Shown here piece after piece: positions 2,815 through 31,650 of a DNA stretch of 41,828 nt. A program made the translations under genes and the position numbers. Below the pieces are notes generated by a model. The model searched no databases. It had not been told where the DNA came from and saw only the letters and a program-made list of their open reading frames with translations. Every line of letters starts with the position of its first letter. The first letter of the stretch is position 1. Source of the stretch: a virus (lineage: Duplodnaviria; Heunggongvirae; Uroviricota; Caudoviricetes); the IMG/VR virus record IMGVR_UViG_2541047798_000006. The stretch is one strand, 5' to 3'.

Positions 2815-3414
2815 TCAGAAACGGTATCCGATACCAACAATAAATGCATCCGTTCGCCAGTCGCCACTGCCGGAGCCTTCATAAGCAATATCAATGGCCA
2901 CGGATTCGGTCGGGTTAAACTGCACGCCAGCCCCCCACGCCAGAGACGTGTTGCTGTGGCGACCGTCATCACTTCCGGTCAGCACATCGTGCGTTTTCCC
3001 CGTATTGTCGGTCACCTGCAGATAATCCCCGGAGAAAGTCGACACACGGCTGTAAGCCACACCCGCCATCGCATACGCGCTGAACCATTCATTCACGCGC
3101 ACAGACGGCCCCGCCATCACGCTGAACCAGCGGTTACGCACGGAATCTTCATGCCAGCGGGTATCGCTGTAATGCGTTTTTTGCTCATCTTCAGCGTTGG
3201 CATAACTGAATGACGTAATCAGCCCCAGCGTGTCCGTAAACTCATAACGGTATTTCACGTTAATCCCGTTCAGATTATCGCTGCCGGGAGCGTTCGTACG
3301 GGCATGAAGATACCCTGCGCTCAGTGTGGCCTGCTGCTCAGACGCCCATGCAGGCGCACCGGATACGGCCAGACAGATGGCTGCGGACAAAATGGCTGCA
3401 CAAACTTTACGCAT
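2815..3414 (-). CDS. lom: Lom outer-membrane protein (Ail/Lom family)
   Basis: 199-aa ORF with signal peptide [24 protein letters not shown] and a beta-barrel-type C-terminus ...VGIGYRF. Same position as lambda lom. Confidence 0.9.
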
Positions 3415-30850: not shown

Positions 30851-30878
30851 TAAAAACAAAAACCCGCCGAAGCGGGTT
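30851..30878 (-). terminator. Terminator of the hok mRNA
   Basis: Minus strand AACCCGC-TTCG-GCGGGTT followed by TTTGTTTTTATTTT. Confidence 0.65.
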
Positions 30879-30946
30879 AAGTGCGGGTGCGTTGAGGATA
30901 CCTGCCACATCAGAGGTGGCGAGGGATTTCTCCCTCGCCGGGTCTC

Positions 30947-31102
30947 TTACTCCTCAGGTTCGTAAGCTGTGAAGACAGCGACCTCCGTCTGGCCGGTTCG
31001 GATTCGTACCTCGCAGAGGTCTTTCCTCGTTACCAGTGCCGTCACTATGACGGTTAAACAGATGACGATCAGGGCGATTAACATCGCCTTTTGCTGCTTC
31101 AT
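30947..31102 (-). CDS. hok: Hok-family type I toxin (HokD/RelF-like, 51 aa)
   Basis: MKQQKAMLIALIVICLTVIVTALVTRKDLCEVRIRTGQTEVAVFTAYEPEE with AAGGAGAAG SD. The upstream leader begins GGTGCTTGAGGCTATCTGCC (about 31269), resembling the hok mRNA 5' tac element. An upstream in-frame ATG at 31159 is in the mok position. Confidence 0.85.
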   Translation of the reverse strand: MKQQKAMLIALIVICLTVIVTALVTRKDLCEVRIRTGQTEVAVFTAYEPEE

Positions 31103-31312
31103 AGCCTGCTTCTCCTTGCCTTTCGGCACGTAAGAGGCTAACCTACATGTGTCTAGCATGAAATTGGCCTCAGATTAATGTTAAGCGTCTTGCAGGACGC
31201 GTAATGTTAACTGGGGCTTTTCTCTATCTGCCGTTGGTGTTATGCCCGAGGCAGATAGCCTCAAGCACCCGCAGCCATTCTACTTAACTACCGTTACCTC
31301 GCCAATGTGAAA

Positions 31313-31402
31313 TCAGTCAGAAAGGCGATCCATAAGAACAATAGCAAGACAATAAATCGCCATTACAGCCGTAATAGCCAGCGCACATTTGAGAACCAGC
31401 AC
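31313..31402 (-). CDS. Candidate 29-codon hydrophobic peptide gene (type I toxin-like / small membrane protein)
   Basis: AGGAGG (31413-31408), 5 nt, then GTG at 31402 giving (M)LVLKCALAITAVMAIYCLAIVLMDRLSD. The upstream promoter candidate TTGAAT-17-CATATT is at 31468-31440. Confidence 0.4.
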   Translation of the reverse strand: MLVLKCALAITAVMAIYCLAIVLMDRLSD

Positions 31403-31566
31403 CACAACCTCCTGTATTGGACGTACACCAGTCCTGATGAATATGAGGCTGTCTCGTCAGTGATTCAATACAACTATTGGGTATAGTTTCTCTGATTTTT
31501 TCTGTGGAAATGGGGCTCAACCACTAGTCATTTAATACGCAAAGTCCGATACAAGCTAACCTTCTA

Positions 31567-31590
31567 GTCCGCTTTGAGCGAAAAGCGGAC
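31567..31590. repeat. Hairpin GTCCGCTTT-loop-AAAGCGGAC, downstream boundary of the NUDIX-HAD cassette
   Basis: 9-bp perfect stem. The stem sequence is shared with the hairpin at 33033-33056. Confidence 0.7.
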
Positions 31591-31650
31591 GTTGGAAGTT
31601 TAAAACTCGCGAACTACTCAGCGTCCATTGATGCGTATTGTGTAACGTGA

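Follow-up and report, generated by a model that had tools for sequence, protein, structure and literature searches.

A conserved 29-codon gene for a putative membrane peptide lies directly upstream of hok/sok in lambdoid prophages of Escherichia coli

The window analysed here is a stretch of 41,828 nucleotides of viral DNA (IMG/VR record IMGVR_UViG_2541047798_000006) that contains a complete lambdoid prophage and is identical by BLAST to positions 891309-933136 of the E. coli AR_0017 chromosome (NZ_CP024886.1). In the PGAP annotation of that identical record, the early-right region lies on the minus strand and its first genes are cro-like, YdaT, O and DUF977. The same annotation places genes for a NUDIX protein at 32957-32319, a HAD protein at 32295-31651 and hokD at 31102-30947, all on the minus strand, and after hokD, in order, rem, DUF968, rusA, Q and two tRNAs. 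In the list of open reading frames (ORFs), hokD is also present and lies inside the 70-aa mok reading frame (30947..31159, minus strand). The 548 bp that separate the HAD gene from hokD are without annotation, and it is in this gap that a 29-codon ORF is found.

The ORF, stop codon included, occupies 31313..31402 of the minus strand, from a GTG at 31402-31400 to a TGA at 31315-31313, and encodes (M)LVLKCALAITAVMAIYCLAIVLMDRLSD. Reading upstream on the same strand, it is preceded by a Shine-Dalgarno sequence (AGGAGG, 31408..31413) 5 nt before the start codon, a predicted 5' leader (31414..31435) and a putative promoter with a -10 hexamer CATATT (31440..31445) and a -35 hexamer TTGAAT (31463..31468); the position of the -10 hexamer suggests a transcription start at about 31433-31435. 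Promoter, Shine-Dalgarno sequence, start and stop codons had all been named in the original prediction, and each is present on the minus strand where it had been placed. The stop codon is 8 nt before the start of the hok promoter (TTGGCG-17-TAGAAT, 31277..31305, minus strand; 9/12 in the promoter scan), and the ORF ends about 43 nt ahead of the hok mRNA, whose leader, together with the sok region, is matched by Rfam RF01794 from 31270 (31097..31270, minus strand; 118 bits, E=2.5e-27). A terminator scan found no terminator-like site between the peptide stop (31313) and the hok promoter, and the first intrinsic terminator 3' of the peptide gene lies past hok at 30861..30878 on the minus strand (7-bp stem with 5 GC pairs, T-run). 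In the gap between hokD and rem, Rfam also aligns the Hfq-binding sRNA IsrK over its full length at 30857-30938, overlapping the hok terminator, but the 26.3 bits (E=0.0096) fall short of the gathering score of 50.

Within the window alone, the combination of Shine-Dalgarno sequence and start codon is at chance level (AGGAGG-N4-8-(A/G/T)TG occurs 5 times, versus 4.06 +/- 2.44 in shuffles), and the case for a gene rests on comparison. Homologues were retrieved independently of the ORF, with the intergenic DNA as BLAST query against phages and complete E. coli genomes, and in a second retrieval by a scan of IMG/VR anchored on the promoter hexamers only. The 29-codon frame is open in all of the 115 homologous loci and 25 ORF haplotypes; one haplotype has lost the stop codon by an 11-nt deletion, which adds 5 aa. 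In alignment A1 there are no indels within the ORF, and the flanks have indels of 1, 9 and 14 nt. The ratio pN/pS is 0.35 in the 29-codon frame, whereas the two other frames of that strand give 0.74 and 1.02. Synonymous changes make up 21 of the 48 substitution events, where 13.2 +/- 2.5 are expected if the 48 observed substitution types are placed randomly on matching bases (P=0.002), and the amino-acid replacements are more conservative than random (P=0.003). Between diverged lineages dN/dS is 0.11-0.44 (dS 0.6-1.3, dN 0.1-0.35). As judged by this pattern of substitution, lambdoid (Qin-like) prophages carry here a genuine protein-coding mini-gene, in the frame and with the start codon originally proposed, and the sequence of its predicted peptide is under purifying selection. 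The ORF list begins one codon earlier (GTG at 31405, 30 aa); the 31405 codon is GTC in most homologues and the 31402 codon is GTG everywhere, or ATG in the copy on the pINV virulence plasmids, and 31402 is therefore the conserved start. The sole disrupted copy seen, at 3058-3147 of the metagenomic locus L172, carries a +1 insertion behind codon 6 and reads YGL in place of YCL; it may be a pseudogene, or the assembly may be wrong there.

The 29-aa peptide consists of a hydrophobic helix of transmembrane length, at about residues 2-24, followed by a short charged tail. Kyte-Doolittle hydropathy averages 2.58 over the best 19-aa window, residues 6-24, which bears out the architecture of one hydrophobic helix and a short charged tail that had been predicted; the corresponding values for all family members are 2.4-3.1. 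The family shares a motif at the C-terminal end of the helix, (I/V)-Y-C-L-x3-(L/F)-(M/W)-(D/E)-(R/H)-(L/F/I). Since Cys6 is not conserved, there is no lipobox. The helix and the YCL...(D/E)R motif are retained in the diverged members L165 (MLAALKGFVAILAVVAIYCLVVVLMDRLSD), L171 (..VLVLVLKGALAIAAVAVIYCLVIVLMDRIFE), P0041 (MLIIKGVLAIVIVVAIYCLVVTLWERLSD) and L166, the last being a 34-aa paralogue (MSDDISLAMEGALAVVAVVGVYCLVVFLMDRLGN; WP_001278454.1, a PGAP hypothetical protein) carried by 674 E. coli genomes, in as many as five copies per genome.

Searches with the peptide point to a family of its own. A profile search of 1.84 billion representative proteins returned 17 matches, all of them members of the same family or mis-extended calls, so that the peptide is no fragment of a larger family. 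There was no match in Pfam, NCBIfam or PHROG at E<=10, and none for the peptide in PADLOC. A protein search with the query padded by the in-frame upstream translation retrieved only entries named hypothetical or 'putative membrane protein'. The peptide strings and WP accessions gave no mention in a literature search, neither the survey of type I toxins by Fozo et al. nor the Pro-SMP paper includes the peptide, and the hokW paper does not mention the upstream ORF. The gene is nevertheless not the orphan it had been called, as sporadic hypothetical-protein annotation exists. None of the 40 E. coli matches listed for the 29-aa unit carries an annotated feature (PGAP), but one annotated unit is present in a separate BLAST list (H68, WP_000960667.1), Prokka calls the pINV copy in Shigella flexneri M90T at 90908-90997, and all 8 of the listed matches to the 34-aa paralogue carry a 'hypothetical protein' call.

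The signals upstream of the ORF are conserved with it, as the original prediction would require. In six lineages (window type, HannyBb/A10, pINV, L153, L171 and L172) a -35 hexamer TTGAAT, TTGAAG or TTGAGT stands always 17 nt from a -10 hexamer CATATT, which is invariant in alignment A1, L171 and L172. Between lineages the 17-nt spacers have about 40% identity or nothing recognisable in common, and fixed hexamers around diverged spacers are the pattern expected of a sigma-70 promoter in use. The built-in promoter scan misses this promoter because the hexamer pair scores only 8/12. The Shine-Dalgarno core CAGGAG is invariant in the BLAST set (alignment A1), the variants GGGGG and GAAGA occur in a few loci, and the leader segment ATCAG...ACGTC is also conserved. 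These comparisons show that in most lineages the unit carries its own predicted sigma-70-type promoter and a strong Shine-Dalgarno sequence. The subfamilies L165 and L166 have no promoter, and their ORF follows close behind the upstream gene, for which reasons they are presumably transcribed with the phage early operon only. A terminator-like hairpin inside the ORF (31378-31359) was discarded as a candidate element; it is not conserved when homologue sequences are compared by eye, the pairing being lost in pINV, A10 and L165.

Where loci with differing flanks are compared, homology sets in close to the -35 hexamer and is lost about 20 nt beyond the stop codon, limits which indicate that promoter and ORF together are the unit preserved by recombination. 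The edges of this unit join at least four upstream contexts (type A, the HannyBb/A10 type, pINV and L153) and, downstream, two contexts in addition to a decayed hok leader on pINV. It thereby has the mosaic boundaries, and also the presence/absence pattern among related phages, by which morons are recognised. The conserved spacer that runs from the upstream cargo slot to the promoter (31469..31594, minus strand), at whose far end, about 31594, BLAST homology across cargo types begins, lies outside the minimal unit because the HannyBb/A10, pINV and L153 lineages lack it. Within the spacer, the window and phage mEp460_ev081 have a 14-nt deletion relative to most homologues at about 31515-31525 (columns 126-139 of alignment A1). 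The piece missing from the window contains GTGCTGGT, a copy of the first eight coding bases of the peptide gene, a sign, perhaps, that part of the start region was once duplicated.

Counting as carriers those genomes in which at least 80% of the 161-bp unit is covered, the unit is present in 1835/5426 complete E. coli genomes, that is, about a third. It also occurs in four isolated phages (mEp460_ev081, Evi, Tritos and HannyBb) and, with 79.4% identity, on about 135 pINV plasmids of Shigella and EIEC. A pattern scan of GTDB recovered 6 loci, all in Escherichia/Shigella or in MAG contigs labelled as other genera, and showed no spread beyond Escherichia/Shigella. The K-12 ompT upstream region and the Qin prophage contain no copy of the unit.

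The gene directly upstream of the peptide gene belongs to 31 unrelated protein clusters in 93 loci. This cargo includes QueH, GmrSD, SIR2-like, AbiH, NACHT, dCMP-type deaminase, RelA/SpoT and RES proteins, as well as AAA_13, DUF4209/DUF7380, DUF4145, TPR, an MFS transporter, HigBA and, in K-12, RelBE; from its composition the slot appears to be a lambdoid-prophage hotspot in which defence-type genes abound. It is bordered by DUF977/ren-like genes on one side and by the peptide-hok block on the other (loci L004-L008, L015, L019-L160 and L171). The functional link to the upstream NUDIX-HAD cassette that had been suggested is refuted, because the slot gene is hypervariable and NUDIX-HAD is one cargo among the 31 clusters. 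The NUDIX protein of the window matches the PADLOC candidate PDC-S07 (E=6.6e-10). At the left edge of the spacer lies a hairpin, GTCCGCTTT-TCGCTC-AAAGCGGAC (31590-31567, minus strand), whose 5' arm is variable, belonging to the cargo, yet usually stays complementary to the conserved 3' arm. As a T-run is absent on both strands, the hairpin is no canonical terminator, and it may mark a junction left by recombination or a site of RNA processing.

On its other side the unit stands directly upstream of hok/sok, so that it occupies the downstream border of the hypervariable slot. A hok gene follows at a fixed distance in 91/115 loci, and 11 loci end too early to tell. The 13 loci with no hok have downstream either a convergent DUF1971 gene or, on pINV, the decayed hok leader and then icsP; the peptide gene outlives hok, persisting where hok has been replaced or has decayed. 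The tandem with hok claimed for the window type extends to all four of the diverged variants that were looked up (L165, L166, L171 and L172), which lie 150-250 nt upstream of a HOK_GEF gene, and the pairing of peptide and hok appears from this to be old. In the Qin prophage of K-12 (L017, NC_000913.3 1645119-1645872), relBE abuts hokD and replaces both the peptide unit and the hok leader, and it is because relBE occupies the site that this best-studied strain is without the peptide gene. The K-12 layout agrees with the published view that relBE was inserted at this site (PMC6379469).

On the pINV plasmids the unit lies about 290 nt upstream of icsP, and the peptide gene and the decayed hok leader, which retains TTGGCG-18-TAGAAT, are both within about 400 bp of that gene (L009 1529-1977; L168; pWR100 CP037924 90617-91040). 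H-NS silences the icsP promoter, and VirB lifts this silencing. The pINV copy has the weaker -35 hexamer TTGAGT and falls within the upstream regulatory region of this silenced promoter. Differential RNA-seq (dRNA-seq) of S. flexneri M90T, grown in TSB at 37 C to OD 0.3, placed icsP starts at 90709 and 90726 on pWR100 (PMC7132871, Table S3), and in this one condition there is no start site near the position predicted for the pINV copy, about 91027 (PMC7132871). At least that copy is silent or very weak under the dRNA-seq condition.

Several searches were made for an RNA partner of the peptide gene. The Rfam scan found no RNA family besides sok, and no antisense promoter recurs across lineages. 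Complementarity between the upstream region and the translation-initiation region (TIR), the test by which TimR was revealed for TimP (PMC7667032), gave z values of -1.15 to +0.10 in 11 lineages. Cross-regulation of the peptide mRNA by Sok was discarded as well, the antisense of the hok leader having no complementarity to the TIR (z = +0.70). Also rejected was an sRNA transcribed divergently from xTGATT-16-TATAGT, a weak promoter on the plus strand; the promoter is confined to the type A upstream context, the upstream 8-mer GTGCTGGT is the one deleted in the window, and there is no significant duplex with the TIR. The leader of about 30 nt folds no better than shuffles (z = -0.42 for 145 nt, +0.31 for 55 nt). 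Type I toxin genes are expected to have a long structured leader or a sequestered Shine-Dalgarno sequence, and here the leader is short and the Shine-Dalgarno sequence exposed.

It is scarcely credible that conservation here reflects a gene in a different frame or some non-coding DNA or RNA element, with the 29-codon ORF open by chance. Other frames do offer candidates: the overlapping TTG-started ORF of 67 aa to which the original prediction had drawn attention exists (31520-31317) and is open in 47/57 unique sequences, a 59-aa ORF lies on the plus strand (31307-31486), and longer or opposite-strand ORFs have been called here in HannyBb, in M90T by RAST, and in P0009 and P0015. In the 67-aa frame, however, 39 changes are non-synonymous and 9 synonymous, and 10 of the 57 sequences interrupt it; its start varies between 58 and 259 nt upstream and it would traverse the conserved promoter, so that the comparison of the two frames across homologues favours the 29-codon frame. 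The third forward frame has 9 stop-creating changes, the plus-strand frame that is open in the window contains stops in 10/25 haplotypes and the other two reverse frames in 25/25, and comparison of leader folding with shuffles gave no signal of RNA structure. A regulatory upstream ORF or promoter that tunes hok/sok, through promoter occlusion or a 5'-extended hok mRNA, with the peptide itself incidental, is improbable, even though it would suit both the close spacing of the two genes with no terminator between them and the hok synteny in every subfamily examined. The peptide of such an ORF would be weakly constrained; the low dN/dS and the conservative replacements indicate purifying selection on the amino-acid sequence. 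Furthermore, the unit is intact where hok is replaced or decayed, and in L166 a 45-nt insert with a palindrome parts the peptide gene from the hok promoter.

A more serious contender, although still an unlikely one, is the toxin of a second type I pair, depolarising the membrane, silenced by an sRNA and arranged in tandem with hok. The peptide is hydrophobic, shorter than 60 aa and has a predicted transmembrane helix, as type I toxins do; TisB, ZorO, ShoB and the Ibs-type toxins are small, with a single helix and a polar tail, and the peptide matches them in all three. Its location in a prophage, beside hok and adjoining the hotspot of defence genes, is also suggestive, and the missing transcription start in Shigella would fit tight repression. 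Against this, a cis-encoded antitoxin would need to lie inside the promoter-to-stop unit, the sole part common to the promoter-bearing lineages, and synonymous sites inside the unit diverge freely (dS up to 1.3). Sok is the only RNA found by Rfam, no antisense promoter is conserved across lineages, neither the upstream region nor Sok is significantly complementary to the TIR, and the leader is unstructured with an exposed consensus Shine-Dalgarno sequence. The gene also persists on its own: every pINV plasmid carries it as a solitary copy, and at least 13 loci have it without hok. Unless its promoter is normally silent, it is difficult to see how a lethal peptide could survive alone for long with an exposed consensus Shine-Dalgarno sequence and no detectable antidote. 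Because no antisense or complementary sRNA, structured leader or family match was found, toxin status is unsupported; of the 'second small toxin or membrane peptide' that had been predicted, the coding gene for a helix and tail stands, and the toxin is unproven and, with no antitoxin RNA in the sequence scans, somewhat disfavoured. We think a classical RNA-controlled type I toxin less likely than a non-lethal accessory peptide, because neither an antitoxin RNA nor a translational lock is detectable and the gene persists alone. The best explanation, held with modest confidence, is a conserved mini-gene for a non-lethal, membrane-acting accessory peptide that forms one block with hok/sok. The accessory peptide would insert into the inner membrane and act there. 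Its transcript probably reads on into hok, because there is no terminator in between, and peptide and hok/sok together would constitute one accessory ('moron') block that ends at the hok terminator. During lytic growth the peptide would also be transcribed from the phage early-right operon, apparently the sole route in the two promoterless subfamilies. The peptide may modulate a membrane process, perhaps the action of Hok, or serve as a phage-exclusion factor. Rather doubtful is the more specific reading that prophage hok/sok has an overlooked protein partner in the peptide, which potentiates, times or neutralises killing by Hok or serves as a second effector in phage exclusion or lysis. If that were true, hok/sok would ancestrally be a three-gene unit in lambdoid prophages and K-12, where relBE has replaced the peptide, would mislead.

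Comparison with known systems sets the peptide gene apart from each of them. Like Hok/Sok (hokD-type, HOK_GEF PF01848), to which it is adjacent and in the same orientation, it is a gene for a small, putative inner-membrane peptide in the nin region of lambdoid prophages and an accessory gene with mosaic boundaries. It differs in that the peptide has no match to the HOK_GEF HMM (E<=10) and is 29 aa rather than about 50 aa long, without a periplasmic domain, and in that the gene has no mok-like overlapping frame, sok-like RNA or long structured leader. TisB/IstR-1, ShoB/OhsC, ZorO/OrzO and TimP/TimR resemble it in length, in the single helix and as previously unannotated short ORFs. At those loci the 5' UTR is long, and a neighbouring sRNA includes a stretch complementary to it (PMC7667032; PMC2887945), unlike the short, unstructured leader and the upstream-TIR z values reported above. 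The MgrB, MgtS, AcrZ and KdpF proteins share with the putative membrane peptide a single-pass architecture of 29-50 aa and a conserved intramembrane motif, which is consistent with binding to a larger membrane partner. They are small inner-membrane regulators encoded by chromosomal core genes and have known partners; the peptide, in contrast, is phage-borne and has no sequence similarity to them. Prophage morons, according to Juhala et al. 2000, are reportedly autonomous units of a promoter and a gene between conserved phage genes, and HK97 gp15 is said, after Cumby et al. 2012, to be a superinfection-exclusion membrane protein. The peptide gene is like these morons in being a unit of predicted promoter and gene with a presence/absence pattern and a predicted membrane product, but it has no dedicated terminator, seemingly sharing that of hok, and its product is far smaller than gp15.

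On comparative grounds the peptide is a real, widespread and uncharacterised family of putative small membrane proteins. It offers a well-defined candidate for work on small proteins and possibly a missing piece of prophage hok/sok biology, and on the virulence plasmids the unit lies inside the much-studied regulatory region upstream of icsP. The unit is also a sequence landmark for the downstream edge of the lambdoid-prophage hotspot rich in defence-type genes. Should it prove an ordinary membrane peptide, the value would lie mainly in better annotation. The 34-aa paralogue is present in 12% of E. coli genomes, which may overlap with the carriers of the 29-aa form, and is often multicopy in Shiga-toxin strains. 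In EHEC-type prophages, at L166 2771-2854, a second tiny hydrophobic ORF of 27 aa (MNWPEAFAITGVAMAIAFLVYVICRWG) with its own GGAGG overlaps the end of the DUF551 gene, directly upstream of the 34-aa paralogue.
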